Assembly (NCBI GenBank): GCA_964474975.1
Contig: CAYYUX010000001.1
Coordinates: forward strand, 465 to 64,464
Direction of reading: 5' to 3'
Source: an uncultured Thermodesulfobacteriota bacterium
GTDB taxonomy: Bacteria > Desulfobacterota > GWC2-55-46 > JADFVP01
Length of the DNA stretch: 64,000 bases
Shown: piece after piece, positions 1,515 to 33,460 of the stretch
How positions within the stretch are numbered: the first letter of the stretch is position 1
Layout of the letters: each line of letters opens with the position of its first letter
The notes under the pieces: model-generated
The model's database searches: none
Seen by the model: the letters and a program-made list of their open reading frames with translations, nothing else
Told to the model about the DNA's origin: nothing
Program-made: the position numbers and the translations under genes

Positions 1515-1525
1515 AAGGAGGGGTA

Positions 1526-3883: not shown

Positions 3884-3943
3884 AAGGCGGAAGCTCCGTC
3901 ATGAGGACGGTTGATGTTTTGTTTAAAAAAAAGGAGGACTCTT

Positions 3944-8478: not shown

Positions 8479-8508
8479 TACAGGGCTTTTTATCGGGGGG
8501 ATTATAAG

Positions 8509-10575
8509 ATGGCGGGGTTGTCTCTTTACGCTCTTTTTCACTGCAACCTTGCCTTCTCGCTTATAGGGAGAGAAGAGTTCAGGGCGGTTATCAAGAGGTG
8601 CTATCGTCCGTTGCTTGAGTTAGCCGGGGAGGGGCTTCCCATTGGTATAGAGATGAGCGCATGGACCCTTCGTCAGGTTCATCAACTTGAGCCTGATTTC
8701 ACAAGGAGGCTCAGCGATTTATGGGGGGCGAAGAGGCTGAGTTTCATCGGCTCGGGTTACGCCCAATCCATAATGCCGCTGATACCGGCAGAGGTGAACC
8801 GCTGGAACCTGAGGCTCGGCAATAAGTACTATGAGCAGATACTTGGCAGGGCCCCGAGCATTGCCCTTGTAAACGAGCAGACTTTTTCATCGGGGCTTGT
8901 AGGCCTTTATAAAGAGGCCGGCTACGAGACCATTATCATGGACTGGAATAATTCATGCCGTCATAAGAATTTTTCAAATCAAAGATTGTACTCTCCTCAG
9001 AGGGCCGCGGGAAGGTCGCCCGGTGAGGAGATAGGGCTCCTTTGGTCTCACTCCATCGCCTTTCAGAAGTTCAGTCGGTGCGTTCACGGCGAGTTTTCAC
9101 AAAAAGAATATATGGATTATCTTCTCTCCCATCATGAAGAGGGCGAGGAGAGGGCCTTTGTCGCCTACTCCAACGATGCCGAGGTCTTTGATTTTTGCCC
9201 CGGCAGAGGGGAGTCTCCGCGAGGCGACTTTGAGAGGGTAAGGGAGCTGTTAAAGGGGATAATGGACGAGAAGAGATTCGTCCTCTTAACACCTGAGGAA
9301 ATTTTAAATAAATTCAAGCCAGACCCATCTGCCGGACCCATGAGACTTGAGTCCGTTGAGACCCCCGTGGTCTCCAAGAAGCAGGAGAGGTATAACCCCG
9401 TCAGGTGGTCTGTAACGGGAAGGGACAGCGCCCATATAAACGCGCGGTGTCATACTTTGTATAAAAGGCTTGAGGCAATCTTCAGAGATGGAGGCGTAAA
9501 AGAAAAAGATATATTACGTGAAAAACTCTGCGAGTTCTGGGGCTCTGATTTCAGGACAAATACCTGCGACGACAAGCTCCGGTACTTTAACGAATCCATG
9601 GGGTGGCTGAGTCTTGAGACGGAACGCCTCCTGAGAGAGGCAGGGCTTGATGTGACCGAAGCGCTCCGCCCTTCCGAAGTATTCAGCGTTACAAAAGAGA
9701 GGGCTTCCGCGGGCATGGTCTTATGCGGCGCGGGTCTTTGCAGAGGGCCGTGGCCGGGGCAGTCTGTCAGGGGCTTTAACGCACTTGAGGTGGACGATGA
9801 TAAAAGGCGGGTGACTATCCGCGCACAAGAAGTGGAGCTGACCCTATTAAAAGACAGGGGGCTGGCCCTTTCTTCGGCGTCCTTTCCGGGGATTTCGGAT
9901 AAAGCTCTACTCGGCACCCTCGGCCACGGGTATTTTGATTCCATTGAACTCGGCGCGGATTTTTTTTCCGGCCACCTTATACATACGAGCCGGGACGGGG
10001 TAAAGACTACGGATCTTTGCCCCGCGCCTCACACTATCAGGGAAGATAGCGGCGGGCTGAGTATCTCCTCGGACATCGAGACACCCATAGGCCTCCTTGA
10101 AAAGACTTATCATATTCCGCGCCGCGGGGCGGAATTCTCCCTTACTTACAAGATAAAGGCCCCGGCCCTTCAGGCCTCAAGCCTCCGTCTCGGCATATTT
10201 ACCTTCATGCCCGAGGCATTTGATGTAGATGAGCTTTGGTTTGAAACGGTAAACGGCGGAATGGGGCCTGAGAGGTTTTATCTGAAGGGGCACAGGCTCT
10301 CTCACGACGAGCCCGTGAGCCCGGCCATCTCGGCATCGGGATGCCTCGGAGCCACAGAGGGATGGGTGGCCTTTGGCGATACAGAGAAAAGTCTTATCAT
10401 CAGCTCGGAGAGGCGTTTTGTACACACTGTACCCATGATAAATTACAGGGAATCCGGTGACAAGTTTTTCCTTCGCCTCTATCATTCCGCGGGAGAGCTT
10501 GATGATACCTCGTACTGGCTGTGGCGCGGAAGCAATGAAGTAACATTTATCATAAGGGCCAAGGGTCCGGCGTGA
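8509..10575 (+). CDS. Large (688 aa) protein with an N-terminal glycoside-hydrolase-family-57-like domain; catalytic role uncertain
   Basis: N-terminus 'LYALFHCNLAFSLIGREEFRAVIKRCYRPLLELAGE…IIMDWNN' parallels the GH57 'hNHQPxxNF…FEEAYEKCYxPxLExL…VIVDDYHF' blocks. The His-Gln-Pro signature is replaced by His-Cys-Asn. The remaining about 450 aa are unassigned. Fold similarity was judged by eye only. Confidence 0.4.
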   Translation: MAGLSLYALFHCNLAFSLIGREEFRAVIKRCYRPLLELAGEGLPIGIEMSAWTLRQVHQLEPDFTRRLSDLWGAKRLSFIGSGYAQSIMPLIPAEVNRWNLRLGNKYYEQILGRAPSIALVNEQTFSSGLVGLYKEAGYETIIMDWNNSCRHKNFSNQRLYSPQRAAGRSPGEEIGLLWSHSIAFQKFSRCVHGEFSQKEYMDYLLSHHEEGEERAFVAYSNDAEVFDFCPGRGESPRGDFERVRELLKGIMDEKRFVLLTPEEILNKFKPDPSAGPMRLESVETPVVSKKQERYNPVRWSVTGRDSAHINARCHTLYKRLEAIFRDGGVKEKDILREKLCEFWGSDFRTNTCDDKLRYFNESMGWLSLETERLLREAGLDVTEALRPSEVFSVTKERASAGMVLCGAGLCRGPWPGQSVRGFNALEVDDDKRRVTIRAQEVELTLLKDRGLALSSASFPGISDKALLGTLGHGYFDSIELGADFFSGHLIHTSRDGVKTTDLCPAPHTIREDSGGLSISSDIETPIGLLEKTYHIPRRGAEFSLTYKIKAPALQASSLRLGIFTFMPEAFDVDELWFETVNGGMGPERFYLKGHRLSHDEPVSPAISASGCLGATEGWVAFGDTEKSLIISSERRFVHTVPMINYRESGDKFFLRLYHSAGELDDTSYWLWRGSNEVTFIIRAKGPA

Positions 10576-10599
10576 CCCCCTTAAGAGACGGGAGTTGAG

Positions 10600-12516
10600 A
10601 TGAGTATATTCGAGAAAAACTACGATGTAATCGCGCAAAAAGACAGTATCCTCGCCGATAGGCTCCGTGCCTTTAGCGGCGAGAGGGCCTCTGTCGAGCG
10701 GGCCGCCAATAAAGAGTTTGTACTGCGCTTCAAGGGCCGTCTCTTTAATAGCGCTTACGGGCCATGGAAGGAGGCATCCCTGCAGGCAGAGGAGATAATG
10801 AACAAAAAAGCGGACTGTGTGGCCCTCTTCGGCCTTGGTTGCGGCTACCTGCTTCGCACCCTTTTGAAGTTGGAGACAAAAAAGATATTTATTTTCGAGC
10901 CTTCCATGGAGATACTTACAGGCGTGCTGGAAAAAATAGACCTTAGCTCTGAGCTGAAGGGGCAGAATGTTTTCCTTGCCAATTATATAGGGCCTTTTGT
11001 CTCATGGATTCAGCGCTTTACCGAGGGCTTCGATAATATCATAGGCTACCATACCATGCCTTACAGATTGACCTTTCCCCATGAGCTAAGGGATTTCATG
11101 GTTAAGATAGAGAACGCCCATACCTCGCAGAAGGTCGGCATAAAGACGGAGATAGATTCAAGGGTGGACTGGCTGAAAAATTATTTTTCCAATCTAGAGT
11201 CATTCTTTACTTATCCCTCAGTAGACGTCCTTACGGAGAGGTTAAAGGGAATTCCCATGATCATCGTAGGCGCGGGGCCGTCTCTCAGTAAAAACGCCGC
11301 CCTCCTCGCGGAAATAAAAGACAAGGCCTTTATAGTATCGGCCATTACGGCCTATAAGAGCCTCTTGAAGTTAGGCGTTGTCCCCCATGCCGTGATAGCC
11401 GGGGAAAAGGTAGACCTTGACGAGTATTTTGACGGCGGCGAGCCCGATAGAGAGATTCGTCTCATCTTATCAGAGGTCTCTCACCCGGCAATGTTCCGTA
11501 GAGAGGCCAGCGGTAAATTTATCTTTTACAGCCCCTATATAGCCCTCAGCCTCGAGCAGGCAAGCCTCTGGGGAAGCTCCTCCTTTGTATCAATAGGAGG
11601 GTCTGTAACTACGGCCATTTTTGACATGGGCGTCAAGTTCGGCTGTGACCCCATTGTTTTTATCGGACAGGACCTTGCCTTTGAGAATGGACATAGTCAC
11701 GCGTCGGGAGGTGTTTATGACGGGCAGAGGGTCGTTATTGATAAAGAAAGGGGGGTTGTTGAGGTAAGAGAACACTATATTTCCGGCCATAAGCGCACTA
11801 TGCGCCACAAGCTTCAGTGGCTTAAGGATATTGAGGGCAAACCTGTTGCGAGTAAATATGACTGGGTTACCTTTCACCAGTGGTTTGAGCGTTATATGAT
11901 TCTTCTGAAAGAGGAATACCCCGATATACGTGTCGTTAACGCCACTGAAGGCGGCGCCTTTATAAAGGGCATGGAGCATAAGCCCCTTAAAGAGGTTATC
12001 TCAAAATATATCCTTGATCCCGAGCCCGTGGAGGATATTCTTGCTTCTGCGGCGGCCATGCGTCCCGAGGTGGATACGGCAGGTCTTGTAGAGGCCTTTA
12101 AGAGACTGGAGCTGAATGTAGCCCTTGTCTCAAAACTTTCATCGCAGATTGTAGCAGAGGCGGAAAAGATGCGGACAGCCTTTCAGATGAAAGGCCTTCG
12201 CACAGAACTTGGCGATAACCTTGGGAAGATAAGAAAGAAGGAGAAAAAACTTTTTAATGCCGCCCGCAAGGTAGCTTTTCTATGGGAGGCCCTTGTGGAG
12301 TACACCTACGACCTTAAGAGCTACCTTAAAGAGGCAGTTGACCGCTCCACGGAAGATCAGTTCAGTAAAGACATCGAGCGTACGATACGCACATACACGG
12401 AGGTGAGAAAGAAATGCGATCTCTTCGCCCCCATGGTGCGTGAGGGCCTTTCGTATGTAAGGCTTCTTCATGAGAGGTCAGCTCAGGACCGGCCCGTAGC
12501 CGTTAATCATAGATAA
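10600..12516 (+). CDS. maf: Motility accessory factor (Maf family, DUF115/MptE-like) - flagellin nonulosonic-acid glycosyltransferase
   Basis: Characteristic Maf N-terminus MSIFEKNYDVIAQKDSILADRLRAF. Central MptE-like domain with the IVGAGPSL motif. About 640 aa in length, located immediately upstream of the flagellin locus. Confidence 0.75.
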   Translation: MSIFEKNYDVIAQKDSILADRLRAFSGERASVERAANKEFVLRFKGRLFNSAYGPWKEASLQAEEIMNKKADCVALFGLGCGYLLRTLLKLETKKIFIFEPSMEILTGVLEKIDLSSELKGQNVFLANYIGPFVSWIQRFTEGFDNIIGYHTMPYRLTFPHELRDFMVKIENAHTSQKVGIKTEIDSRVDWLKNYFSNLESFFTYPSVDVLTERLKGIPMIIVGAGPSLSKNAALLAEIKDKAFIVSAITAYKSLLKLGVVPHAVIAGEKVDLDEYFDGGEPDREIRLILSEVSHPAMFRREASGKFIFYSPYIALSLEQASLWGSSSFVSIGGSVTTAIFDMGVKFGCDPIVFIGQDLAFENGHSHASGGVYDGQRVVIDKERGVVEVREHYISGHKRTMRHKLQWLKDIEGKPVASKYDWVTFHQWFERYMILLKEEYPDIRVVNATEGGAFIKGMEHKPLKEVISKYILDPEPVEDILASAAAMRPEVDTAGLVEAFKRLELNVALVSKLSSQIVAEAEKMRTAFQMKGLRTELGDNLGKIRKKEKKLFNAARKVAFLWEALVEYTYDLKSYLKEAVDRSTEDQFSKDIERTIRTYTEVRKKCDLFAPMVREGLSYVRLLHERSAQDRPVAVNHR

Positions 12517-12691
12517 ATGGAAGCGGAGTCCATCAAGCCCTCCCCGCTGTCCATGAATGAGTTTAAAATTACAATGAAGGAAATCCTTGAAAATCCCGGA
12601 AAACTAAAAATCATGTTCTTATTTTTTTGTCTTCGCTAATTAACGTGGGCATTATTATGTGCTTCCATGGCAGATAAAGAAGGAGCCTGTT

Positions 12692-13297
12692 ATGACGGAT
12701 ATATACCTTGACGATACGAGGCTGGAGATAGGTGGCGCTGACGCCGCATCTACTATCGGCGATATTATTGTGGCTGTGGAAGAGGACCTTAAACCCTTCC
12801 GGCGTTTTATTCAGGAGCTATGGCTCGATGGCTTTAATGCGGGTATCGGATGGAAGGATACCGTGGCCGTCAATGAGCCTTTTGAGCTATATGGAGAGCT
12901 AAAGCTCTTTAGCGGCGATGTAGACCCCATAGTCCTGAAAGGGATTTATACGGTGAGTGAGTATATTGATTTTATTTGTACTCTCATTAACGATACCTCT
13001 TCCGCCCTCAGACGCGGTGCTGGAGAAGTAGACAACCTCCTTGGAGCGATTATCGAGAGTACCGGAGAGGTTATCAGAACCATGGATTCACTCTACAGGT
13101 GCGGTCTATCCTATGAGATAGATATATTCAGAGAAAATCCCATATCCTGTTACGAGGCAATTTTAAGGAATATGTCGGAGCTGAAAGACGCCCGTTTGTC
13201 ACGGGACAATATCCTGCTTGCCGATATACTGCAGTATGAGCTCGGTCCGCTACTGATACAGATGGAGGAAAAGGTCTTTTACCGAAAAGATATGTGA
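12692..13297 (+). CDS. Hypothetical acidic protein (about 200 aa) between maf and fliC
   Basis: Intact ORF with a reasonable RBS (AAGGAG at about 12678) before the ATG at 12692; alternative upstream ATG at 12659. No motif recognised. Sits directly upstream of the fliC sigma-28 promoter. Confidence 0.4.
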   Translation: MTDIYLDDTRLEIGGADAASTIGDIIVAVEEDLKPFRRFIQELWLDGFNAGIGWKDTVAVNEPFELYGELKLFSGDVDPIVLKGIYTVSEYIDFICTLINDTSSALRRGAGEVDNLLGAIIESTGEVIRTMDSLYRCGLSYEIDIFRENPISCYEAILRNMSELKDARLSRDNILLADILQYELGPLLIQMEEKVFYRKDM

Positions 13298-17173: not shown

Positions 17174-17220
17174 TATGGCGATATATCTCTTCAGTACGTT
17201 GATGGCTTTGCCATGTTATC

Positions 17221-18018
17221 CTATTTGAAAAGGCTTTCTTCATTTCCAAGCGAGAATTTTTTCTTTTCCACAAGGATACTCACACGCCTGTTTATGGGAT
17301 CAAAGGTATCCTTGCCGTTCAGGGGCGCTACATCGGCAAAGCTCGAGACTCGGGATATGCGCCGTTCATTAAGGCCGTCACGCACAAGCTCCCTCCTCGC
17401 GGCGTTGGCCCTCTCTGCGGCAAGCTCCCAGTTAGTATGCTCCTTGTTAGCGAACTTGAAGCTGTCCGTGTGTCCCTCTATGGCTATCTGGTTGGGCATA
17501 TCTTTGAGGGTTTCCGCAAGAACTTTTAAGACGTCTTTACCCCTCTTAACGAGCCTGGCTCCGCCGCGTTCAAACATGGGGCTGTCATCAAGGTCCACAA
17601 GCTCAAGCCTTACACCATTGGTAGTGGTAAATATGAGTATCTGTTTTTTCATACTGCTGAGCCTTGTATTAACCGTCTTGGTTATCTGTAAAATGATATC
17701 ATTATTGGATTTCTTTGTGGGTACTGGTTTGGATGAACTCTTGTTTAACATGAGGGGGTTGCCTGACATGACGGATATCCCCTTGCCGCCTCCTGCCTCG
17801 GTACCCTCGAATATGGTGTAGCTTCTGAAGTATTCGGCCATACCCTTCTTGGACTCTATGGACATCATGGCTACAAGCCAGAGAACCATGAAAAAGGCCA
17901 TCATCGCCGTTACAAAGTCGGCGTAAGCAACCTTCCATGCGCCACCGTGATGCCCTCCGCCGTGGCCTTTTTTTATTACCTTTTTTATGATTATGGGTTG
18001 TGTATCGTTGTTGTCCAA
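17221..18018 (-). CDS. motB: Flagellar stator protein MotB
   Basis: N-terminal GGHHGGAWKVAYADFVTAMMAFFMVLWLV plug/TM segment and C-terminal OmpA-like peptidoglycan-binding domain (…IAIEGHTDS…WELAAERANAARREL). Stop-start overlap with motA. Confidence 0.85.
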   Translation of the reverse strand: MDNNDTQPIIIKKVIKKGHGGGHHGGAWKVAYADFVTAMMAFFMVLWLVAMMSIESKKGMAEYFRSYTIFEGTEAGGGKGISVMSGNPLMLNKSSSKPVPTKKSNNDIILQITKTVNTRLSSMKKQILIFTTTNGVRLELVDLDDSPMFERGGARLVKRGKDVLKVLAETLKDMPNQIAIEGHTDSFKFANKEHTNWELAAERANAARRELVRDGLNERRISRVSSFADVAPLNGKDTFDPINRRVSILVEKKKFSLGNEESLFK

Positions 18019-18032
18019 CTCGAATCCTCCTC

Positions 18033-18890
18033 TTATTTTTTCTTCTGCTCCTTGATGGCGTCTTCCAGATCCTTGAAGGATGGCCGAGCGCCGCTGAAGA
18101 CGGTTCTCCTTCCGGCCTCAACGGCCATCTGCGGCGGAAGGTCTTTCGCAAAGGCGAGGAGGGCTATCTTTATGGCCTCGATATACTTCGAATCATCCCT
18201 GTTCTTGTGCTCAAGATGACTGCCGAGGGGGCCTACTACGCCGTAGCTCAGAAGTATGCCGAGAAAGGTGCCCACAAGGGCCGCCGCTACGCTATGACCG
18301 ATGACCTCCGGGCCGTCGCTCATCTTGCCCATTGTGATGACGATGCCGAGTACGGCCGCTACAATGCCGAAACCGGGCAGGGCATCTCCCACCTTGGTAA
18401 TAATCCCCGGGGTTACACCGGCCTCCTCATGGTGGCTGTCCATCTCGATATCCATGAGATCTTCCATCTCCGTTGGCTTGATGCCGATGATAAAGACCCT
18501 CAGGTTGTCGCAGAGAAAATCAAGGGCATGGTGATTCTTCATGATGAATTTATTGGCCTGAAAGATTGCGCTCTCTTTTGGATTTTCAACGTCTTTTTCT
18601 ATAGAGAGGAGCCCCTCCTTCTTTATCTTTGTGAATATGTTGTACAGGAGCGTCAGGAGCGCGATATAGTGACTCTTCTTAAGGGTACTGCCTTTTATGA
18701 TGGCTGGTATGGACTTGAAGACGTCCTTCAGCAGGTTCGATGGGCATGATACGATAAGCGACCCCAGTGCCGCTCCACCGATGGTTATTAGCTCCGCAGG
18801 CTGAATGAGAATGGAAAAGTTGCCTTCCTCCATAGTGTAACCTGCGGCAATGGCGCCGAATACTACGATGAGTCCTATTATTGGCAACAT
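18033..18890 (-). CDS. motA: Flagellar stator protein MotA
   Basis: Four-TM MotA/TolQ/ExbB architecture: MLPIIGLIVVFGAIAAGYTMEEGN…, cytoplasmic loop, and C-terminal …PEVIGHSVAAALVGTFLGILLSYGVVGPL…. Confidence 0.85.
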   Translation of the reverse strand: MLPIIGLIVVFGAIAAGYTMEEGNFSILIQPAELITIGGAALGSLIVSCPSNLLKDVFKSIPAIIKGSTLKKSHYIALLTLLYNIFTKIKKEGLLSIEKDVENPKESAIFQANKFIMKNHHALDFLCDNLRVFIIGIKPTEMEDLMDIEMDSHHEEAGVTPGIITKVGDALPGFGIVAAVLGIVITMGKMSDGPEVIGHSVAAALVGTFLGILLSYGVVGPLGSHLEHKNRDDSKYIEAIKIALLAFAKDLPPQMAVEAGRRTVFSGARPSFKDLEDAIKEQKKK

Positions 18891-19167
18891 GGCAATCCTT
18901 TTAACTTAAGATAAATTTTTATAGTTATTACGGCAGTTATCCGCGTCTGAAAGGGGCCTGTCTCTATTCACTCCCCTTCTTTTACACATCGGATGGGTAT
19001 AGCAAAACTTTATGGTAAATACCTCTCATCCATAGAAGGTAAGTAGGCACTCTTCCCTTGCCGTGTCACTAAACCGACTATTTAACCTCTCATCACATTC
19101 TATATTGACACCCACCCTCCTTTAACGTATAATTCAAACTCACCTCGAATAAATCTTCCCGTCCCAA

Positions 19168-19385
19168 GGGGCATATATTTCTTCCTGAGATTCATTTCGA
19201 TATTATTGGGGGCCTTTTTACTATTTCCGATATTCACCTCGGGCTATATTGGGGCCACGTTTTTCTTCCTGAGATTCATCTCAGCCCTTATGAGGGCTAC
19301 TTTCTTCATCCTGACATCCCCCTCGGCCTTTGTGGGGCCTCTTTACTTCCATCTTGAGATCCATACAGGAGTTGCAGGGCGGTTT
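19168..19385. repeat. Array of about 5 degenerate tandem repeats with an about 41-45 bp period in the motA / sigma-54-activator divergent intergenic region
   Basis: Units share TTTYTTCCWGAGATYCAY…(A/T)TTGGGGCC. For example, 19176-19196 'tttcttcctgagattcatttc' recurs as 19262-19282 'tttcttcctgagattcatctc'; compare 19301 'tttcttcatcctgacatcc' and 19342 'tttacttccatcttgagatccat', each followed by a GGGGCC/GGGGCCT block. The tool ORFs 19206-19541 and 19330-19566 are low-complexity artefacts of this array. Confidence 0.6.
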
Positions 19386-19537
19386 TGTCTCAACGCATCC
19401 CCCTATACTCCATGGCGGTTTTCACAGCTCAGGCTTTACAGATCTCGAAGTACATATTGCATACTCAGTTTATTGTCGAGACATACTCATCTTGATATAC
19501 ATCCTCGATATCATCTTTTATACAAAAGGAGAGATAC

Positions 19538-20938
19538 ATGAGGAAAAAAAATGTTATTTTAGTTGAGGAAGAAGGCCAGCTCACTCAATTCCTCAAAGAA
19601 AAATTTCGTGCCGAGGATTATTCCATAAACACCATTAAAAAGCCTGATGCCGCCATAAGCTACATTCGTCGAAATACTCCAAACGTAGTCATAGCGGATC
19701 TCAACATCACCGGTCTCGATGATATTGAGTTTGTGCGTTCCATCGCAGGCGCGAGTCCGAGCTCAAGCATCATAGTCATACCCCGTGACGGATCCGTAAA
19801 AAAGGCCATGGATGCCCTTAACGCGGGTGCCTTTTCCTACATAAAGAAGCCTTTTAATAAAGTAGAGGTCCTTGTGACCATTGAGAAGGCCTTTGAGGTT
19901 AGCGATCTTACGGCGGAAAATCTCAGGCTGAAACGTAACATCGGCCACAAATTGAAGGACCGTCTCCTCGGCACGAGCGACAAGATAGAGCATGTGCGGA
20001 GTATTATAGACAAGGTGGCCGATACGGACTCCACTGTGCTTATACTCGGCGAGAGCGGAACGGGCAAGGAGATAGTGGCAAAATCCCTCCACTTCGGCAG
20101 TAACAGGGCGAGCGCGCCCTTTGTCCCCATAAACTGCGGCGCCATCCCCGAAGACCTCCTTGAGAGCGAGCTCTTTGGACACGAAAAGGGAGCCTTCACA
20201 GGGGCCATAGCCACAAAGATAGGAAGGTTCGAGGCCGCGAACGGCGGAACCGTTTTTCTTGATGAGGTAGGCGATATGAGCCCCGGTCTTCAGGTTAAGA
20301 TATTGAGGGTCCTGCAGGAAAAGGAGTTCGAGAGAGTTGGCGGAAGGAAGACCATCAAGGTGGACATCAGAGTCATCGCGGCTACGAATCAGGACCTTGC
20401 CAGAGGCATAAAAGATAAAACTTTCAGGGAAGACCTCTATTACAGACTTAATGTAATACCAATAGACATGCCTCCTTTACGGGAAAGGAAAGAAGATATA
20501 CCCGTATTTATTAAACATTTTCTCAAAACCATCTCAAAGAAGAAACATAAGAATGTGACAACCATCTCCCCTGATGCCATGAGTCTTTTTGAAGAGTACG
20601 AATGGCCGGGCAATGTTCGTGAGATGGAAAATGTCATAGAGCGTATAGTGGTATTGAAGGAAAGGGGCATGGTGACGGAAAAGGACCTGCCAGACAACAT
20701 AAAAAAAGCCACTGTCCTGCTCTCAAGAAAACGCGTCAAGGGCTTTGATTATCGCGTTTACATCTCCCCCGAGGGTGTTGATTTTAATTCCGTAGTGGAT
20801 AAGTTCGAGACTGACCTCATTGTTAATGCCCTTGATATGGTTAATGGCGTAAAAAAGAACGCCGCAAAGTTCCTTAAGCTCAACAGGACAACCCTCATCG
20901 AGAAGATGAAGAGAAAGGGACTCCGCCTTGATGCCTAA
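19538..20938 (+). CDS. NtrC-family sigma-54-dependent transcriptional activator (receiver - AAA+ - HTH); FleQ/FlrA-like flagellar master regulator candidate
   Basis: N-terminal receiver-like domain, then AAA+ sigma-54 interaction domain (GESGTGKE Walker A, GAFTGA loop in '…EKGAFTGAIA…', ESELFGHEKGAF), and a C-terminal Fis-type HTH (…NGVKKNAAKFLKLNRTTLIEKMKR). RBS AAAGGAG upstream. Not adjacent to a kinase, unlike the second activator at 24438. Confidence 0.8.
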   Translation: MRKKNVILVEEEGQLTQFLKEKFRAEDYSINTIKKPDAAISYIRRNTPNVVIADLNITGLDDIEFVRSIAGASPSSSIIVIPRDGSVKKAMDALNAGAFSYIKKPFNKVEVLVTIEKAFEVSDLTAENLRLKRNIGHKLKDRLLGTSDKIEHVRSIIDKVADTDSTVLILGESGTGKEIVAKSLHFGSNRASAPFVPINCGAIPEDLLESELFGHEKGAFTGAIATKIGRFEAANGGTVFLDEVGDMSPGLQVKILRVLQEKEFERVGGRKTIKVDIRVIAATNQDLARGIKDKTFREDLYYRLNVIPIDMPPLRERKEDIPVFIKHFLKTISKKKHKNVTTISPDAMSLFEEYEWPGNVREMENVIERIVVLKERGMVTEKDLPDNIKKATVLLSRKRVKGFDYRVYISPEGVDFNSVVDKFETDLIVNALDMVNGVKKNAAKFLKLNRTTLIEKMKRKGLRLDA

Positions 20939-21093
20939 AGGTCAAGCTTTCGACACCCTTAAGATGACTATCTTATGAGGCAATCCATACTCCACACCCA
21001 TGATTCTGCCAAGGCCTTAAAAAAAGCGCATTAAAGGCTCTGACTCCCCTTTAAACAGGTTTTTTAAACACTCGTGACGCAGGGCTTGCCCTG

Positions 21094-21109
21094 TGGCACG
21101 AGTGTTGCT
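21094..21109 (+). promoter_or_regulatory. sigma-54 (-24/-12) promoter upstream of the TPR protein gene
   Basis: TGGCACGagtgTTGCT (GG 21095-21096, GC 21107-21108, spacing N10) matches TGGCAC-N5-TTGCW. It is 30 bp upstream of the ATG at 21140 and embedded in a 17-bp imperfect palindrome (21071-21104). Confidence 0.6.
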
Positions 21110-21139
21110 TCTCTTTATTACAAGGAGAGGGATCTGTCT

Positions 21140-23569
21140 ATGGTTAAGTACTTTCTATATCCCGTAATATTTGTGCTTGCCTGGGGTTTTGCCGTACCCG
21201 GTGACTGCACAGCGAGGCGGGCCGGAGTAGATATAAGGGCCGTAAGGGCGGGAAGGCATAGGGATTTTTACCGCCTTGTCATAGTGCTTCGCCGTAAGGC
21301 TATGTACAGGATTATAAAGACGAAAAAGGCCCTTGATATATATATTGTCGATGTGGACTCTCGAGGTTTGAAGGGCGGCTTTGCGGGTACTAGGCTTTTC
21401 AGGGTTAAGAATATCTCAACTTCATTAAAAAACGGCATGCCCTTTACCACAATGAATGTCGCTCTCCGTAGTCCCGTGGTTATACGCGACAAAGTGGTGT
21501 TGAGACCTTACAGGATTGTTATTGATATGTATCCTCTTAAAAAGCCGAAGCGGCCTGGCGGGAGAAGAACAGAGACCGCGGCAGGGCGTAAAAAAAAGAC
21601 TGCAGTGTTGAAGACGACTTCTGTGAAGAGACTTCGAAATAAGTCGGTACATAAAAAATCTTCGAAAAAGTCTTATCGCGGCGCAGGTCATCTTAAGGCC
21701 TTTGCCTTTAATGAAGGTTGGAGGTGGATATTCAGAAAAGAGGCTGTAAGACACCTTAAAGAGGCCTTTTACGGAAATATTCCCGACAAGGGGCTTGAGA
21801 TACTCCTCGAGTATGTGCCGATAAAGGGCGGTTCTGCATGGGACGACGGGGCCGAGGCCGACGCCTACGTGAAAGCCCTTGCAAAGCACGGTTATAAGGC
21901 AAGGGCCGCTACCCTCAAGACGATAATCGCACTTATTAAAAAAGACGGCGGCCTCCTAGTGGCGGAGCGTGTGATTATAAAGACGGCATATAACAACTAT
22001 ACGCCGATAGCGTATTTTCTTCTGGCCTCTGCCTACGAGAGAGAGGGGCTTTATCCTGAGGCAGTTGCTTACTACGGTATGGCCTATGAGGCGAAGGCAA
22101 GTAAAAAGCTCAAGGCGCGCGCCGCCCTTGGCAGGGGCAGGGTGCTGTTTTTTTCCGGGCATCTGGAGAAGTCTTTAAAGTGGTTTGAGAGGGCAAGGCA
22201 GGAGGGCTCTGCAGAGGCAGATGGTTGGCTTGCCGGGAGCCTGCTCCTGAAAGGAGAGTTCAGGTCGGCATGGGCAAGATACGGCAGACTCGGTCTCACA
22301 AAAGACCCGCTAAGCCTTATGGGCCTCGGTGATATGAAGATGATGCGAGGTGATTACAAGGGGGCGCATCTGATATTCAAAGGCCTTAAATCAAGGTTCG
22401 TGGATGAGCCTTTCCTGAGGTCTTTCTTTGCCATAAGGTCAGCTGATTCTCTGCTGGCCGCAGGCTCGGTAAAGGCGGGCCTCGCGGCCTACAAAGCAGT
22501 CAAAAAAAAATCAAAGGGTGAGGGGCTTGCCCTCTCGGAGATGGCGCTTGCCGATTATTATTCCGGAGACGGCGGCAAACTTCCAGAGGCGAAGGCACTA
22601 TACAGAGAGGTTGCCGAAAGCGGAAGCAGAGGCGCTGGTGAGGCATACATAAGGCTTGCCATAGTCCTTGAGAAGTTAAAAGAATACGGCGAGGCGATGA
22701 AAACGCTTGACGAGATATCACCTGAAAAAAAACTCTTTTCAAGAACAGATATGGCGGGCTTTCTTCGCTCCAGGATAGCCTTTAATTGGATTAAAGACCT
22801 CTATTTCAAAAAAAAGTGGCTCGATACTGCAAGGATTAATTTTCGATACGGAGATTGGATTACCTTTGGCAAGAGGGCGGGAAATTCTCTTAGGGCAGGC
22901 GAGGCGCTTATGCGTTTAGGCCTTACGCCCGACGCCGTCAAGGCCCTTAATAATGCAGTGCATATAGGAACCCCTGAGATAAAGGCGAAGGCTCTTATGC
23001 TCCTAACCCGTTTATACCTTGATCAGAGAGACGGCATTGCCGCCGCCGCTGTTCTTGAAGACCTGCGGTCTTCTTCTCCTGTGGCGGCGCGCTCGCCAAA
23101 ATGGTCTGCCTATTATATAGAGGCGCAGTACCTCAAGGGTAACTTCAAGGATGTGATACGGCTGAGCCGTAGTAAAAAATCAGGATCTGTAATGCTCCTG
23201 AGGGCCAAGGCATATCGCGGCCTCGGGATGTGGCCTGAGGCCGGAAAGTCCTACGCAAAGGCAAGGGATTTATTCAGGAAACATAAGGACAAAAAAAGAC
23301 TTCTCGAGGCCGAGACAGGATACGCCGACAGTCAATTTATCGCCCGCGGATTTACAGAGGCCATAAATGCCTACAACAGGGCTGAGGCAATGGCCGCAAA
23401 TGGCAACACAGTTACAGAGAGTTGGCTGAGATATCGCCTATCGCTTAGTTATGCCGGTGCAGGCATGAGAGGAAAGGCCGTAAAGGCCCTGAAAAACTTG
23501 AAGCACAGCGAGAGGTCTTACGGAGACTGGGCAGAGGCCCTGCAGATGGCAGAGAGAGGAGGGTCGTAG
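21140..23569 (+). CDS. Large secreted TPR-repeat protein (about 810 aa) with a lysine-rich segment; flagellum-associated scaffold candidate
   Basis: Signal-peptide-like N-terminus MVKYFLYPVIFVLAWGFAVPG. Basic low-complexity stretch (KKPKRPGGRRTETAAGRKKKTAVLK…KKSSKKSYRG). Multiple TPR-like Ala/Tyr/Leu-rich helical pairs through the rest (e.g. AYFLLASAYEREGLYPEAVAYYGMAYEA…, AKAYRGLGMWPEAGKSYAKA). The tool start at 21074 precedes the sigma-54 promoter, so 21140 is preferred. Confidence 0.7.
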   Translation: MVKYFLYPVIFVLAWGFAVPGDCTARRAGVDIRAVRAGRHRDFYRLVIVLRRKAMYRIIKTKKALDIYIVDVDSRGLKGGFAGTRLFRVKNISTSLKNGMPFTTMNVALRSPVVIRDKVVLRPYRIVIDMYPLKKPKRPGGRRTETAAGRKKKTAVLKTTSVKRLRNKSVHKKSSKKSYRGAGHLKAFAFNEGWRWIFRKEAVRHLKEAFYGNIPDKGLEILLEYVPIKGGSAWDDGAEADAYVKALAKHGYKARAATLKTIIALIKKDGGLLVAERVIIKTAYNNYTPIAYFLLASAYEREGLYPEAVAYYGMAYEAKASKKLKARAALGRGRVLFFSGHLEKSLKWFERARQEGSAEADGWLAGSLLLKGEFRSAWARYGRLGLTKDPLSLMGLGDMKMMRGDYKGAHLIFKGLKSRFVDEPFLRSFFAIRSADSLLAAGSVKAGLAAYKAVKKKSKGEGLALSEMALADYYSGDGGKLPEAKALYREVAESGSRGAGEAYIRLAIVLEKLKEYGEAMKTLDEISPEKKLFSRTDMAGFLRSRIAFNWIKDLYFKKKWLDTARINFRYGDWITFGKRAGNSLRAGEALMRLGLTPDAVKALNNAVHIGTPEIKAKALMLLTRLYLDQRDGIAAAAVLEDLRSSSPVAARSPKWSAYYIEAQYLKGNFKDVIRLSRSKKSGSVMLLRAKAYRGLGMWPEAGKSYAKARDLFRKHKDKKRLLEAETGYADSQFIARGFTEAINAYNRAEAMAANGNTVTESWLRYRLSLSYAGAGMRGKAVKALKNLKHSERSYGDWAEALQMAERGGS

Positions 23570-23576
23570 AGTCATT

Positions 23577-24407
23577 ATGGACGTTAAGGTTGATAAGGCA
23601 TTTCTCAAGAGCGCCTTCATGGACTTTGAAGCATCGTCACGAAAGCTCGAGATGCAGTACGCAAGGCTCGGCGATAAGCTCGGAGACCTTGAGAGAGAGT
23701 TCTCTGGAAAAAACCGCGCCGCCGAGAGGACGGCAAGGCTTGCCGCCATGGGTGAGATGGCCGCGAAGATAGCACATGAGATAAGAAATCCCCTTGGCTC
23801 CATGCTTATATTTTCCACCATACTCTGCCGTGAACTCGATGGGCAGAGCAGGGCTCAGACCCTTGCCGGGCATATTGTAGAGGGTATAGGAAATCTTGAC
23901 CGTATACTCTCCGACATGCTCGTATTCTCCAATCAGCCCGAGCCTTCTCTTATTCCCCTTACCATAAGAAAGGTTATAGAAGATGCCCTGAGAACCTGTT
24001 CCGGCAGTAAAGCCGTGAATATTACCATAGAAAATTTTTCAGATGAGAACGCCATGGTCATGGGAGACGAGCGGCTCCTTAAACAGCTTTTTGTCAATCT
24101 TATCTTCAACGCTTTTGACGCCATCGGCGATAAGAGCGGCGCCATAAACATATCAACTTCTCTGCGAGAGGGTCAGAACCTTGAGGTGGTTATACGGGAC
24201 AACGGATGCGGGATGGACGAGGAGACTCAGGACAGGATATTCGAGCCCTTTTACACTACGAGGCATAGCGGGACGGGCCTTGGCCTTGCAATTGTGTCCT
24301 CGATAGTCAAGGCGCATGGAGGTGACATCGAGTGCCTCTCAAGCGATGGATGCGGCACGAGCTTTATTCTTCATCTGCCATATTATGACAGGGGGTGTGA
24401 GGCATGA
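23577..24407 (+). CDS. Cytoplasmic sensor histidine kinase (HisKA + HATPase_c, no TM segments); FlrB/FleS/FlgS-like
   Basis: H-box [12 protein letters not shown]-box ([13 protein letters not shown]), G1/G2 boxes (DNGCGMD…GTGLGLAIV). No hydrophobic TM stretch. Immediately upstream of a sigma-54 response regulator. Confidence 0.8.
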
Positions 24408-24437: not shown

Positions 24438-25799
24438 ATGCAGGACATACTCGTTGTTGACGATGACCTTGGCATGCGGACGGCCCTTAATGAGGCGCTT
24501 TGCCGGAAGGGTTACAGAGTGGATATCGCAAGCTCCGGACGCGAGGCCCTTGATATGTTTCATGATATGAGCTACAGGCTTGTAATAAGTGATATGAAGA
24601 TGCCCGGCATGGACGGCGTGGAGCTGATGAAGGGGCTTAAGAAGATAGAGCCCACTACTCCGGTGCTTTTGATAACGGCCTTTGGAACAGTAAAAAAGGC
24701 AGTGGAGGCAGTAAAAGAAGGTGCCGTTGATTTTATCCAGAAACCCTTTGCCCTTGAGAGGCTTGAGGTGCTTGTAGATAAGACCCTCAAGGGCGCCTAC
24801 TGTCATGATGTCCCTGAAGAGGGCATAAAGGGGGTTTTTATGCCCACAAGGTCTTGCGCGATGAGCAAGACCTTGGCCTTTGCGAGGATAGCGGCTGGCA
24901 GTACTGCCACTGTGCTTATAGGCGGCGAGAGCGGCACGGGTAAAGAGCTGGTCTCAAGGTTTATTCACGAGCAGAGCGTCAGGCGTATGAGGCCTTTTGT
25001 GGCGGTTAACTGCGCATCCATACCCGATGGCCTCCTTGAGAGCGAACTCTTCGGCTTTGAAAAAGGCGCCTTTACTGGCGCGGCCACGGGAAGGGCTGGC
25101 AAATTCGAGCAGGCCCATAAAGGCACGATACTACTCGACGAGGTAAGTGAGATGGACGTAAAGCTTCAGGCAAAGCTCCTCAGGGTAATACAGGAACGAG
25201 AGGTGGAGCGCCTCGGCGGCAAAAAGGTCACTGCCCTTGATATAAGGATAATCGCCACGACAAACAGAGACATCAGACGCGAGGTATCTGAGGGGCGTTT
25301 CAGAGAAGACCTCTTCTATCGGCTGAATATCTTCCCAATCATTATACCGCCGTTACGCGATAGAAAAGAAGACATATCTCTCTTGTCAAGACACTTTATG
25401 GCAAGGTTCAGCAGAAAGTACAATCGGCACCTTCTTGATATATCCGATGAGGCCATGGCCTGCCTTGAGGCCCGTCGATGGCCGGGAAACGTCCGTGAGC
25501 TTGAAAATACCATTGAGCGTTCCGTGCTTCTCAGTAATGGCACGGTACTTTCAAAAGAACACATCCTCTTATGCAATGACGATGGCGATAAAGAGGAACC
25601 CATGACACCGGTGCCTCAGGGTTTTTCCTTTGACGGAATAACCATTAAGGACGTTGAGAGGGACCTTATATATAAGACGCTTGACGATACAGGGGGCAAC
25701 AGGACAAGGGCGGCGAGAAGGCTTGGAATATCCATAAGAACACTCCGAAACAAACTTAACGAGTATGACGCCGCCGCAACTCATCGGGCCGTTTCTTAG
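24438..25799 (+). CDS. NtrC-family sigma-54-dependent response regulator (FlrC/FleR/FlgR-like)
   Basis: Canonical receiver (ILVVDDDLGMR…VISDMKMPGMDG…LLITAFG…KP), AAA+ domain (GESGTGKE, GAFTGA, ESELFGFEKGAF), C-terminal HTH (GGNRTRAARRLGISIRTLRNKL). Confidence 0.85.
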   Translation: MQDILVVDDDLGMRTALNEALCRKGYRVDIASSGREALDMFHDMSYRLVISDMKMPGMDGVELMKGLKKIEPTTPVLLITAFGTVKKAVEAVKEGAVDFIQKPFALERLEVLVDKTLKGAYCHDVPEEGIKGVFMPTRSCAMSKTLAFARIAAGSTATVLIGGESGTGKELVSRFIHEQSVRRMRPFVAVNCASIPDGLLESELFGFEKGAFTGAATGRAGKFEQAHKGTILLDEVSEMDVKLQAKLLRVIQEREVERLGGKKVTALDIRIIATTNRDIRREVSEGRFREDLFYRLNIFPIIIPPLRDRKEDISLLSRHFMARFSRKYNRHLLDISDEAMACLEARRWPGNVRELENTIERSVLLSNGTVLSKEHILLCNDDGDKEEPMTPVPQGFSFDGITIKDVERDLIYKTLDDTGGNRTRAARRLGISIRTLRNKLNEYDAAATHRAVS

Positions 25800-25872
25800 A
25801 CGCTATGAGGCAGTTTTTTCCTTTTTAATCACGCGCTCTACAGAATACTTAAGCAAAACATGCCTGCTCCGA

Positions 25873-25889
25873 CGGTATGAATCTTGCAA
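25873..25889 (+). promoter_or_regulatory. Possible sigma-54 promoter upstream of flgBC-fliE…
   Basis: cGGTATgaatcTTGCAa: GG(25874-25875)-N10-GC(25886-25887) with a perfect -12 TTGCA but a weak -24 (CGGTAT vs TGGCAC). About 160-nt GA-rich leader to flgB. Confidence 0.35.
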
Positions 25890-32215: not shown

Positions 32216-32674
32216 ATGAAAAAATTCAGCTTTAATCTTGATTCACTACATAGGTACAGAGAGAGCCTTGAGGACATCAGCATGAGAGAGTTTTCCGCCG
32301 GGCTCAAGGCATACATGGATAAGGAGGCTGCACTGATTTCTCTTCGGGAGGAGAGGCGCCGCCTCTCCGAGGAGATAGACAAATTACGGGAGAGTGGCGA
32401 CAAAAGGCTTGAACTCGCACTGTACGTCACTTATATCAAGGATCTCAAAGAGCTTGTAACAGAGATGGAGGAGGAGCTGAAGACCCTTAAAAGAGAGCTT
32501 GAAGAGAGACGCATGGACCTTATCCGCGTAATGAAGGACCGCAAGGTCCTTGACGCGATGAAGGAAAAATCACTTGAAAAATACAGGGCAGACTCAACGC
32601 GGACAGAACAGAAGGTAATGGATGACATTGCCGGCACTATGTTCTCTTTCGGAGGGAATAAAAATGAAAAATAA
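32216..32674 (+). CDS. fliJ: Flagellar export protein FliJ (coiled-coil)
   Basis: About 150-aa all-helical protein (MKKFSFNLDSLHRYRESLEDISMREFSAGLKAYMDKEAAL…ELEERRMDLIRVMKDRKVLDAMKEK…) directly after fliI, with an overlapping stop/start region. FliJ consensus F.L..LL..R...E. Confidence 0.6.
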   Translation: MKKFSFNLDSLHRYRESLEDISMREFSAGLKAYMDKEAALISLREERRRLSEEIDKLRESGDKRLELALYVTYIKDLKELVTEMEEELKTLKRELEERRMDLIRVMKDRKVLDAMKEKSLEKYRADSTRTEQKVMDDIAGTMFSFGGNKNEK

Positions 32675-33221
32675 GGTCCTTGCCGCCCTTGTAATCCTTA
32701 AGGTATTCATCCTCGCAATATGGCTCTTTACAAACGTTATCCCCTATTCTGCCAATGATGCAGTGGCCGGAATACCGCCTCGCTCTGAGACAAGACCTGC
32801 TGATGTGGTAAAAAAAGATAATTCCTCGACGGACGATAAGGGGCTCCTTATGGCCGTCAGACGAAAGGAAGACGAACTCCGCAGGCGGGAAGAAGAACTT
32901 GTGGAGAGAAAACGTCACCTTTCCGACATACGTGGTGATATTGATACAAGAGTTAAGAAACTCAAATCCTTGCTGAAAAAGCTGAACTCGCTGAGAGGAG
33001 AGATAAATACCTTTAATGACGCGAGGATAAAGCACCTTGTCAAGATCTACGAAAACATGGCGCCCGGCGATGCCGCTACGAGGATTGAGCATCTTGATGA
33101 CGAGATGGCCGCCTCGATACTCGGGGGTATGAAGGAGAAAGTGGCAGGTAAAATTCTCGGCCTTGTTAATGTAGATAAATCCGTAAGGATAAGCCGCGTG
33201 CTTAAGAAGGAACTACGGTGA
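32664..33221 (+). CDS. Membrane-anchored MgtE_N-domain flagellar protein (YlxF/FlbB-like)
   Basis: N-terminal TM (VLAALVILKVFILAIWLF), coiled-coil Lys/Arg/Glu segment, and C-terminal MgtE-N-like block (…IKHLVKIYENMAPGDAATRIEHLDDEMAASILGGMKEKVAGKILGLV…). Sits between fliJ and fliK as ylxF does in Firmicutes/spirochete operons. Confidence 0.5.
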   Translation: MKNKVLAALVILKVFILAIWLFTNVIPYSANDAVAGIPPRSETRPADVVKKDNSSTDDKGLLMAVRRKEDELRRREEELVERKRHLSDIRGDIDTRVKKLKSLLKKLNSLRGEINTFNDARIKHLVKIYENMAPGDAATRIEHLDDEMAASILGGMKEKVAGKILGLVNVDKSVRISRVLKKELR

Positions 33222-33444: not shown

Positions 33445-33460
33445 TGGCACGGCCGTTGCT
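33445..33460 (+). promoter_or_regulatory. sigma-54 promoter upstream of fliK-flgD-flgE
   Basis: TGGCACggccgTTGCT (33445-33460) is a perfect GG-N10-GC with TGGCAC and TTGC, about 95 bp upstream of the fliK ATG. A T8 run with flanking GC-rich dyad (about 33290-33352) upstream may terminate the preceding transcript. Confidence 0.6.

Follow-up and report, generated by a model that had tools for sequence, protein, structure and literature searches.

The 64-kb window analysed here, that is, the whole stretch of DNA, holds a large polar-flagellum cluster in which the gene of a probable PflA-type protein of 809 aa (21140..23569, + strand, ATG to stop with the stop codon counted in) is embedded, with a sigma-54 activator upstream and a histidine kinase and a second activator downstream. 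That the flagellum is polar is indicated by the presence of FlhF and FlhG in the window, which also holds two MotAB sets. The upstream neighbour (19538..20938, + strand) combines a receiver, a sigma-54 AAA+ domain and HTH_8 (Pfam, NCBIfam). Downstream lie a short soluble histidine kinase of the FlgS/FlrB-like kind (23577..24407, + strand; 276 aa, HisKA and HATPase_c in Pfam) and a second receiver and sigma-54 activator, FlgR/FlrC/FlbD-like by Pfam and NCBIfam (24438..25799, + strand), after which come flgB, flgC and further flagellar genes. These domain assignments agree with the first-pass annotation, which had placed the gene between a FleQ/FlrA-like activator and an FlrB/FlrC-like pair. The kinase gene begins 7 nt past the stop codon of the 809-aa protein gene, and the two are probably co-transcribed.

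The sole perfect sigma-70 consensus of the window, TTGACA-17-TATAAT at 19105-19133, is located upstream of the first activator gene. The leader at 18900-19540 bears an exact 17-nt repeat; tandem and direct repeat finders reported none there. The open reading frame orf111 (19206-19541) gave no family hits and was treated as non-coding, as were those at 17213-17821 and 18000-18749, which likewise gave no family hits and overlap motA/motB on the opposite strand.

Directly 3' of fliJ, the cluster encodes a putative FlbB/FlgY/MotE-type protein (32622..33221, + strand, with ATG 32664 as the likely true start) that consists of a TM helix, a coiled coil and an MgtE_N-like head. Its matches to Pfam MgtE_N (E 1.9e-4; 22.3 bits, below the 25.9-bit cut-off) and to NCBIfam collar_FlbB (E 6.4e-9; 35.9 bits, where the cut-off is 110) make it a candidate E-ring partner of a PflA-type spoke. 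The flgY gene of C. jejuni likewise adjoins fliJ (PMC11870540, Supplementary Table 3), as does the candidate E-ring gene of the FlgY/FlbB type here.

Start codon, promoter and gene order

The uninterrupted translation from ATG 21140 to the stop at 23569 gives 809 aa; the open reading frame itself had been correctly recognized, while the 810 aa ascribed to the protein included the stop codon. The mechanical open reading frame opens upstream, at GTG 21074. ATG 21140 is the sensible start because the extension to the GTG would include the promoter and because a Shine-Dalgarno-like element, AAGGAGAGGG (21122..21131, + strand, read from the sequence), precedes the ATG; AAGGAG/GGAGG-like motifs are likewise present in orthologous upstream regions. 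A protein 100% identical to the 809-aa protein was found on a 181.6-kb JGI metagenome contig.

A sigma-54 (-24/-12) promoter, TGGCACgagtgTTGCT, lies at 21094..21109 (+ strand), where TGGCACGAGTGTTGCT is an exact fit to TGGCAC-N5-TTGCW and the exact TGGCAC-N5-TTGCT ends 30 nt 5' of the start codon. Exact matches to TGGCAC-N5-TTGCW occur three times in the 64-kb window, all on the + strand and each preceding flagellar genes, namely at 21094, at 33445 (preceding fliK) and at 37653 (preceding fliL). With at most one mismatch allowed there are five sites in the window where 1.5 are expected, a number reached in 0 of 100 shuffles. The element is kept upstream of the orthologues: the orthologous loci of Thermodesulfobacteriota have TGGCAY-N5-TTGC 23-44 nt 5' of the start, and one Nitrospiraceae locus has a weaker GGCAT-N5-TTGC, 15 nt 5' of the start. 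The -24 GG/-12 GC spacing, the placement, the conservation and the two flanking sigma-54 activators are all, at the level of sequence, those of a sigma-54 promoter, and the earlier claim that the gene has its own consensus promoter is borne out by the exact match, its conservation and its enrichment over shuffles. Overlapping this promoter is a conserved hairpin or palindrome, AACACTCGTGacgCAGGGC-tt-GCCCTGtggCACGAGTGTT (21067..21106, + strand, read from the sequence), whose 3' arm includes the -24 element and the spacer. RNAalifold, applied to seven orthologous upstream regions, returned 13 consensus pairs for it, five of them with compensatory double changes. The hairpin probably serves the activator gene upstream of it as terminator or insulator.

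A search for related loci with the close alignment found six close MAG loci and three Nitrospiraceae loci, and a word-index protein search with the broad alignment added only unrelated TPR proteins. Gene order is maintained in orthologues of 47-62% identity and in Nitrospiraceae, and the same order of TPR gene and kinase gene recurs in orthologous loci across phyla; at one locus (L014) the activator directly follows the TPR gene, with no kinase placed between them. Slot and promoter recur in all the orthologues examined, including those with <30% identity and those from other phyla. The family falls into size classes of ~800 aa with the N-terminal domain and ~700 aa without it, and many members, though wholly without this domain, retain both the TPR arm and the place in the flagellar cluster.

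Domain architecture of the protein

The order of domains is a predicted signal peptide, an AMIN-fold beta-sandwich (residues 30-132), a disordered Lys/Arg-rich linker (133-189) and TPR (190-805). A Sec-type signal peptide is predicted, from hydropathy and from reading the sequence, at residues 1-25 (21140..21214, + strand): MVK is followed by a 16-residue hydrophobic core, YFLYPVIFVLAWGFAV, and by the polar stretch PGDCTA. The AlphaFold2 model predicts a helix at residues 2-16, and comparable N-termini are found across the homologues, including those without the N-terminal domain. Reading Cys23 as that of a lipoprotein was rejected, because a canonical lipobox is lacking and several orthologues do not have the Cys.

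The N-terminal domain (21227..21535, + strand) is, in a domain-only AlphaFold2 model (pLDDT 89.1, pTM 0.82) compared by Foldseek, an eight-strand beta-sandwich of the AMIN fold, with its strands at residues 32-132. Its top Foldseek matches are the AMIN domains of AmiC (4bin, E 1.9e-4, TM 0.67) and PilQ (3jc8, TM 0.71), and the PflA chains 9hmf_K and 9leq_A rank fourth and tenth, both at TM 0.46. Matches to Pfam AMIN PF11741 (16.3 bits, below the gathering score of 20.5) and to AMIN-like PF24837 (13 bits, below that of 27) recur below threshold across the family N-domains, in 9 of 10 for PF11741 (best E 4.8e-5) and in all 10 for PF24837 (best E 1.4e-5). The domain thus shares its fold and weak Pfam AMIN and AMIN-like matches with AmiC and PilQ, where AMIN is carried on an amidase or a secretin, whereas here it is carried on a TPR arm. 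The Pfam family DUF7494 (PF24323), which the PflA family members looked up carry, matched neither the full-length protein (E limit 0.01) nor the N-domain of any of 10 family members (E limit 10), and hhalign of the N-domain against the PflA N-domain (Prob 0.07%) found no homology. As modelled, the N-domain has a canonical AMIN fold that is nearer to the AMIN domains of AmiC and PilQ than to the N-domain of PflA, and it may bind peptidoglycan.

The linker (21536..21706, + strand) is disordered by its low pLDDT (25-42 in the AlphaFold2 model); its residues 133-190 comprise 24% K and 12% R, with a net charge of +20 and a pLDDT of about 26. It sits where the PflB-binding loop of PflA (residues 126-163) sits. 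The Lys-rich segment that had been singled out as unusual is real, and the family comparison presents it as a flexible, clade-specific linker and not as a conserved functional motif, with a length of 25-96 residues among family members and a basic character confined to the close clade. Basic charge as a conserved functional feature was rejected, since family pI spans 5.2-10.6 and distant members have linkers that are not basic.

The TPR superhelix covers residues 190-809 (21707..23566, + strand; Pfam, AlphaFold2 model, hhalign) and opens with a nearly invariant FNxGWRWxYRK motif. The earlier description of a TPR-rich protein was well founded, given the Pfam matches to TPR_12, TPR_2, TPR_16 and others and an AlphaFold2 model in which residues 194-805 form a superhelix of ~35 helices in ~17 pairs.

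Relationship of the TPR arm to PflA

PflA was long held to be a speciality of Campylobacter and Helicobacter motors. Comparison of the full model with 350,542 PDB chains by Foldseek gave as best match 9hmf_K (E 1.6e-11, 859 columns), the 'Paralyzed flagella protein PflA'. When a 29-sequence family alignment was compared by hhalign with a 15-sequence PflA alignment, 510 collinear columns were aligned (Prob 97.5%, E 7.8e-12, score 107.9), and a strict 47-sequence family alignment gave Prob 95.5%, E 1.5e-8 and a score of 80.8; the collinear columns number 494-510 across the two broad family alignments, and the comparison pairs residues 227-799 of the 809-aa protein with PflA 239-780. PflA profiles shuffled in TPR-sized blocks scored 26.6-49.0 and reversed profiles 15.6-19.1, so that a collinear match well above the controls joins the best PDB match in bearing out the proposed likeness to PflA. 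Seven AMIN/TPR proteins, positional orthologues of other lineages, serve as a bridge: their match to the family of the 809-aa protein has E 1.7e-63, and their match to PflA, which extends over PflA 177-788, has E 1.1e-26. The three that were checked all occupy the same slot, followed by a histidine kinase and/or sigma-54 regulator and by flgBC-fliEFGHI. Taken by itself, the close 10-sequence alignment yields E 0.005 against PflA, inside the range of the shuffled controls, and single family members score weakly against the PflA profile (median 26.5). The case for homology accordingly depends on the broader alignments together with the bridge sequences. In HMMER searches of all PDB sequences with the single protein and the 10-sequence profile, PflA was absent even at E up to 10, and nothing was returned but TPR proteins of designed or eukaryotic origin and a weak match to the AMIN domain of PilQ. 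Judged by these profiles, the TPR arm is truly homologous to the spoke arm of PflA.

The 788 aa of PflA comprise a beta-sandwich of four antiparallel strand pairs, a loop (residues 126-163) and 16-17 TPR (PMC12222027, PMC11870540). The PflA proteins of C. jejuni and H. pylori (9HMF chain K, 9LEQ chain A) share with the 809-aa protein an eight-strand beta-sandwich, a flexible linker and a TPR arm, and its predicted signal peptide would make it secreted as they are; both the size and the layout asserted earlier hold, with 809 vs 788 aa and the same domain order. However, similarity at the HMMER level is lacking, the N-domain here is canonical AMIN-like and not DUF7494, the linker is Lys/Arg-rich where that of PflA is hydrophobic and acidic, and the mature protein has a pI of 10.2 vs 5.3 for PflA. 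PflA binds PflB via its N-domain and linker, whereas the 64-kb window encodes no PflB partner. A further difference is that the gene has its own sigma-54 promoter and its place among regulators here; C. jejuni pflA barely changed in a regulatory-mutant RNA-seq table (log2 fold changes of -0.51 and +0.05; PMC11870540).

Proteins of this kind have been listed before. Feng et al. (bioRxiv 2025; PMC11870540) describe 'potential PflA homologues' (TPR-1), and their Supplementary Table 5 pairs one FlgY with one TPR 'potential PflA' of 617-810 aa in Thermodesulfobacteriota/Nitrospirota species, most Thermodesulfobacteriota having a single TPR protein. Examples are Desulfotalea psychrophila WP_011189893.1 (804 aa), Geoalkalibacter subterraneus WP_144402043.1 (807 aa), Geobacter metallireducens WP_011366145.1 (700 aa) and Nitrospira inopinata WP_062485174.1 (723 aa). 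The set was nominated by gene proximity and predicted structure only, and PflA is held there to be without conservation at the sequence level (PMC11870540). Compared by description, the locus resembles this set in having one long TPR protein near flagellar genes, in the same phyla and the same size classes, paired with one FlgY homologue, which here is a candidate. Other TPR partners of FlgY/MotE/FlbB are CC_2058 (Caulobacter), MotC (Sinorhizobium), MotK (Cereibacter) and the Borrelia collar proteins FlcA/FlcB, which are, like the protein predicted here, periplasmic TPR proteins proposed to link the E-ring with the stator region (PMC13023049); again by description, they differ from it in that they vary in size and membrane anchoring.

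A probable motor spoke and its rivals

Taken together, the Foldseek and hhalign results, the synteny, the promoter and the E-ring-like gene support the original suggestion of a PflA-like periplasmic motor scaffold, and we consider it probable that the 809-aa protein is distantly homologous to PflA, which forms the periplasmic spokes of the scaffold that braces the flagellar motor in Campylobacter. The response-regulator-type activator encoded at 19538..20938 would then be the presumed activator that switches on the sigma-54 promoter at 21094, and the PflA-type gene would be transcribed at an early stage, along with the genes of the kinase and the second activator, whose products in turn would activate the rod and hook operons. 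Once exported by way of its Sec signal peptide, the 809-aa product would lie in the periplasm as a spoke, its superhelix of ~17 TPR radial around the MS-ring and its C-terminal TPR end directed inward, to an E-ring of the FlbB/FlgY-like protein encoded 3' of fliJ. At the outer end, the AMIN domain would sit on its flexible basic tether and most likely grip peptidoglycan or another partner at the rim or stator, by which stator units could be positioned and stabilised.

The AMIN domain can also be taken to mark a flagellum-associated, peptidoglycan-directed assembly factor of the periplasm and not a stator-positioning spoke; the domain would direct the protein to peptidoglycan at the nascent basal body, leaving the TPR arm to recruit or control enzymes of wall remodelling or the assembly of the P/L rings. 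The canonical AMIN fold, closest to the septal-peptidoglycan-targeting domain of AmiC, speaks for such a role, as do a weak TPR similarity of the YbgF/CpoB type, which in the Nitrospiraceae orthologue reaches 103.7 bits and passes the YbgF cut-off, and the JGI label 'TolA-binding protein' on some homologues. We nevertheless hold this to be unlikely, as many family members are without AMIN yet retain the TPR arm and the flagellar slot, and as PflA, to which that arm shows collinear homology, is a structural spoke. Still less probable is that the protein serves the adjacent two-component system as a signalling partner that reports envelope or assembly status to the kinase controlling the next tier of flagellar genes. 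The kinase gene is only 7 nt away and the order of TPR gene, kinase and activator is conserved across phyla, but the kinase, with HisKA from residue 58 of its 276 aa, has no predicted membrane or periplasmic part, and a secreted TPR protein could therefore not contact it directly; moreover, the TPR gene of locus L014 adjoins the activator with no kinase between, and the homology indicates a structural protein.

It is very improbable that the protein is a generic or non-flagellar one with TPR (akin to PilF/PilW of the type IV pilus, to BcsC or to Tol-Pal) and stands in the flagellar cluster by chance, given that all the orthologues examined, down to <30% identity and in different phyla, keep the position and the promoter, and that the PflA match lies well above the shuffled controls. 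Nor does any curated non-flagellar family match the 809-aa protein above its cut-off: searches of Pfam and NCBIfam for homology to an unrelated TPR family returned no match to BcsC or another named TPR family, and the sole NCBIfam match, tol_pal_ybgF, scored far under its cut-off (26.5 vs 90.1 bits, over 63 residues only).

The further suggestion that the gene points to an elaborated high-torque motor is not shown to hold, because no homologue of PflB, FlgP or FlgQ is found in the 64-kb window, and the locus alone does not demonstrate a wide motor of that kind. The window likewise holds no second long TPR or TM-TPR gene. An E-ring with PflA-like spokes is regarded in the literature as an ancient and widely distributed arrangement, and not as a sign of high torque (PMC11870540, section 10). 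As the PflA-type TPR class of Thermodesulfobacteriota has already been reported as potential PflA homologues, the locus is a further example of that class and not a new motor part. What is new here is the sequence-profile evidence, with controls and bridges, for the PflA homology of the flagellar-cluster TPR protein of Thermodesulfobacteriota and Nitrospirota, and the recognition of its N-domain as a canonical AMIN domain on the modelled fold. The locus also adds a conserved sigma-54 promoter and a fixed slot beside FlgS/FlgR-like regulators, by which such genes are easy to find, and it offers a well-defined target for genetic and cryo-ET work in relatives that can be cultivated, e.g. Desulfotalea and Geobacter. 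The conserved unit of TPR gene, kinase and activator could tie spoke production to the flagellar assembly checkpoint. Tentatively, the E-ring, the TPR spoke and a peptidoglycan-binding AMIN domain that anchors it directly to the wall beside the stators, on a long basic tether and with no PflB rim, might represent the ancestral scaffold, with DUF7494 and PflB as later elaborations of the Campylobacterota. If that were so, the fusion of AMIN and TPR would be older than the Campylobacterota and would not have been taken from the type IV pilus machinery in that phylum.

The TPR gene and its promoter

The gene at 21140-23569 on the plus strand starts with ATG at 21140, ends at the stop codon at 23569 and encodes 809 residues. 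The sequence TGGCACGAGTGTTGCT at 21094-21109, 30 nt 5' of the ORF, matches the sigma-54 consensus exactly, and a ribosome-binding site of the AAGGAG type lies between it and the ATG. The window contains three exact matches to this consensus, all on the plus strand and each ahead of flagellar genes, including sites 5' of fliK (33445) and fliL (37653), and the motif is enriched compared to shuffled sequence. TGGCAY-N5-TTGC was found upstream of every Thermodesulfobacteriota orthologue examined. The first-pass annotation described a sigma-54-driven gene for a secreted TPR protein among flagellar regulators; the ORF, the sigma-54 site and the flagellar-cluster setting show that it described the sequence correctly. 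A strong hairpin or palindrome (21067-21106) overlaps the promoter, its 3' arm being formed by the -24 element and spacer, and the same hairpin is present upstream of the orthologues in six related loci (L004 to L009). Where the spacer differs between lineages (GAGTG versus GTTTG), the 5' arm is altered to match, and across the window and the orthologous upstream regions 5 of the 13 consensus pairs show compensatory changes. Possible functions are termination or insulation of transcription reading through from the activator gene upstream, or binding of a regulator.

The flagellar cluster and its regulation

In the large flagellar cluster, a flagellin-glycosylation-like block is followed by fliC, fliD, fliS, fliT, a gene for a PilZ protein, and a minus-strand motA and motB. 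Next is a gene for a receiver and sigma-54 activator (activator 1, 19538-20938), which immediately precedes the TPR gene, while a soluble histidine kinase of 276 aa (23577-24407) and a second receiver and sigma-54 activator (activator 2, 24438-25799) are encoded after it, all on the plus strand. Then come flgB and flgC, identified by family search, five ORFs named fliE, fliF, fliG, fliH and fliI only by order and matching genes in orthologous loci, and a presumed fliJ, named by order alone because among the related loci fliJ was called only in L001 and L014. An FlbB-like gene (32622-33221) is followed by fliK, flgD, flgE, fliL, fliM, fliN, fliP, flhB, flhA, flhF, flhG and fliA, after which come che genes and another motA-motB pair. 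The two separate stator pairs, one at 17221-18890 (minus strand, divergent from the regulator block) and one at 55042-56522 after the che genes, suggest dual stators. A 640-aa protein of HEAT/PBS-lyase-type repeats without a signal peptide is encoded between fliA and cheR (48469-50391). The region upstream of fliC (16-13297) looks like a flagellin-modification island, encoding a Maf/MptE-like protein (10600-12516), two methyltransferases, a B12-binding radical SAM enzyme, an ATP-grasp ligase, dehydrogenases and a GH57-like protein; its conserved 212-aa ORF at 12659-13297, also present in L003, gave no family match.

Only one perfect sigma-70 consensus, TTGACA-17-TATAAT at 19105-19133, occurs in the window, about 400 nt 5' of the activator 1 gene. 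A sigma-54-like site, CGGTATgaatcTTGCA, lies at 25872-25887, about 155 nt 5' of flgB, which would fit the rod and MS-ring operon having a sigma-54 promoter of its own. Solely from such promoter motifs, a cascade is suggested in which sigma-70 would drive activator 1, activator 1 would induce the sigma-54 operon of the TPR protein, kinase and activator 2, and activator 2 would in turn induce the sigma-54 rod and hook operons, followed by FliA. Within the region 19105-19537, the long leader of activator 1 contains the 17-nt sequence TTCTTCCTGAGATTCAT twice, at 19179 and 19263, as an exact direct repeat; a 111-codon ORF called in this leader matches no family and is unlikely to be a true gene.

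The order activator, TPR protein, kinase, activator, flgBC-fliE-fliF is kept in orthologues from Thermodesulfobacteriota MAGs (47-62% identity). A Nitrospiraceae locus (L010) has the same order, with a secreted 709-aa TPR protein that lacks an AMIN domain and aligns to the target family (hhalign Prob 92%, E 5.4e-7). A representative-library search yielded 45 clusters at E < 1e-30, divided by size into proteins of about 800 aa that have the N-domain and proteins of about 650-700 aa that lack it. L010, L014, L015 and L016, which represent distant lineages, have in common the unit TPR protein, (kinase), sigma-54 response regulator and flgBC-fliEFGHI; their TPR proteins range from 709 to 1103 aa, with an AMIN-type N-domain present or absent. 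In L016 a YkuD-type L,D-transpeptidase and a peptidase are encoded just upstream.

Relation to the PflA spoke

The spoke protein PflA of C. jejuni is a secreted protein of 788 aa with three parts: an N-terminal beta-sandwich resembling the AMIN domains of PilQ, a flexible loop at residues 126-163 wrapping around PflB, and a radial spoke of 16-17 TPR, the inner end of which meets the FlgY E-ring (PMC12222027; PMC11870540; PMC13023049). The full-length AlphaFold2 model of our protein, built on ten homologues (mean pLDDT 70.9), has a hydrophobic N-terminal helix (residues 2-16), eight beta-strands (32-132), a disordered stretch (135-188, pLDDT about 26) and about 35 helices (194-805). Its top Foldseek match in the whole PDB is 9hmf_K (E 1.6e-11, 859 columns), with eukaryotic TPR scaffolds ranking behind at about 1e-9. 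The identity of 9hmf_K as PflA was confirmed by searching the PDB sequences with the PflA alignment from the PMC11392913 supplement, copied by OCR; this search also yielded the correct PflA sequence. A 29-sequence family alignment matched a 15-sequence PflA alignment (Prob 97.5%, E 7.8e-12, score 107.9) over 510 collinear columns, equating residues 227-799 with PflA 239-780, and a strict 47-member alignment did so with Prob 95.5%, E 1.5e-8 and score 80.8. As controls, PflA profiles shuffled in 34-column blocks scored 26.6-49.0 and reversed profiles 15.6-19.1. The gap is bridged by seven TPR proteins of greater divergence, of which five carry an AMIN-type N-domain: aligned together, the seven match the target family (E 1.7e-63, 761 columns) as well as PflA (E 1.1e-26, over PflA 177-788). 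All three bridge proteins with fetched loci occupy the same slot, 5' of a kinase and/or sigma-54 regulator, then flgB, flgC and fliEFGHI. The profile matches, controls, and bridge sequences and loci together lead us to regard the TPR arm as a true homologue of the PflA spoke, in support of the initial guess of a PflA-like scaffold.

Modelled on its own, the beta domain is confident (pLDDT 89.1, pTM 0.82) and best matches the AMIN domains of PilQ (3jc8, TM 0.71) and AmiC (4bin, TM 0.67), with the PflA N-domain at ranks 4 and 10 (9hmf_K, 9leq_A; TM 0.46). Pfam AMIN-like was found in 10/10 and AMIN in 9/10 family N-domains, all with sub-threshold scores. Profile comparison found no sequence-level similarity between the N-domains of the target family and PflA, and DUF7494, the Pfam marker of PflA family members carried by the PflA N-domain, did not match the target, whose N-domain is structurally nearer to AmiC/PilQ AMIN. 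The two N-domains share fold class and position only. The linker (24% Lys, 12% Arg) varies from 25 to 96 residues in the family and is basic only in the close clade, family pI ranging from 5.2 to 10.6; we interpret the Lys-rich stretch as a flexible tether, not as a conserved motif. The TPR arm starts with FNxGWRWxYRK (21707-21740, residues 190-200), a motif nearly invariant in the close and broad family alignments (A1 and A3), with W194, R195 and R199 conserved in at least 90% of 29 sequences. Members without the AMIN N-domain keep this motif too, and it falls outside the PflA-aligned region.

Proposed role and place among known TPR proteins

The best reading of the protein is a periplasmic spoke; its export, location and contacts, and any effect on torque, are inferred. 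The TPR arm would lie radially in the periplasm, its inner end meeting an E-ring of the FlbB/FlgY-like protein encoded after the presumed fliJ, and its outer end held near the stators by the AMIN domain, plausibly on peptidoglycan. The candidate E-ring protein (32622-33221) combines a TM helix with a coiled coil and an MgtE_N-like head, and matches NCBIfam collar_FlbB (E 6.4e-9) and Pfam MgtE_N (E 1.9e-4), both below cut-offs. Its gene has the position of flgY in C. jejuni, directly after fliJ, but the product is membrane-anchored like Borrelia FlbB, whereas FlgY is secreted. Less likely, the AMIN-bearing protein is a wall-directed assembly factor, or, being encoded next to the kinase, a signalling partner of it; an unrelated TPR protein is likewise less likely, given the homology of the arm to PflA. 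Nothing resembling PflB, FlgP or FlgQ was found within the 64-kb window, and the wide Campylobacter-style high-torque motor raised by the first-pass annotation is therefore unsupported by the evidence at hand.

Feng et al. (bioRxiv 2025; PMC11870540) report FlgY in 66% of the 1,365 flagellated species they surveyed and, in about 52%, flagellar-cluster TPR proteins, for which they use the term 'potential PflA homologs'. Supplementary Table 5 of this study lists one FlgY and one TPR protein of 617-810 aa for Thermodesulfobacteriota species, and TPR proteins of 611-723 aa for Nitrospirota (PMC11870540). A 2026 review restates the idea (PMC13023049). The class is therefore already known, and the protein described here is a new, uncharacterised member of it from an uncultured bacterium (JGI metagenome contig Ga0256727_1000002). 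To this class we add controlled sequence-profile evidence for homology to PflA, which Feng et al. deemed out of reach, the finding that the N-terminus carries a canonical AMIN domain, and a conserved sigma-54 promoter and regulatory slot of the gene.
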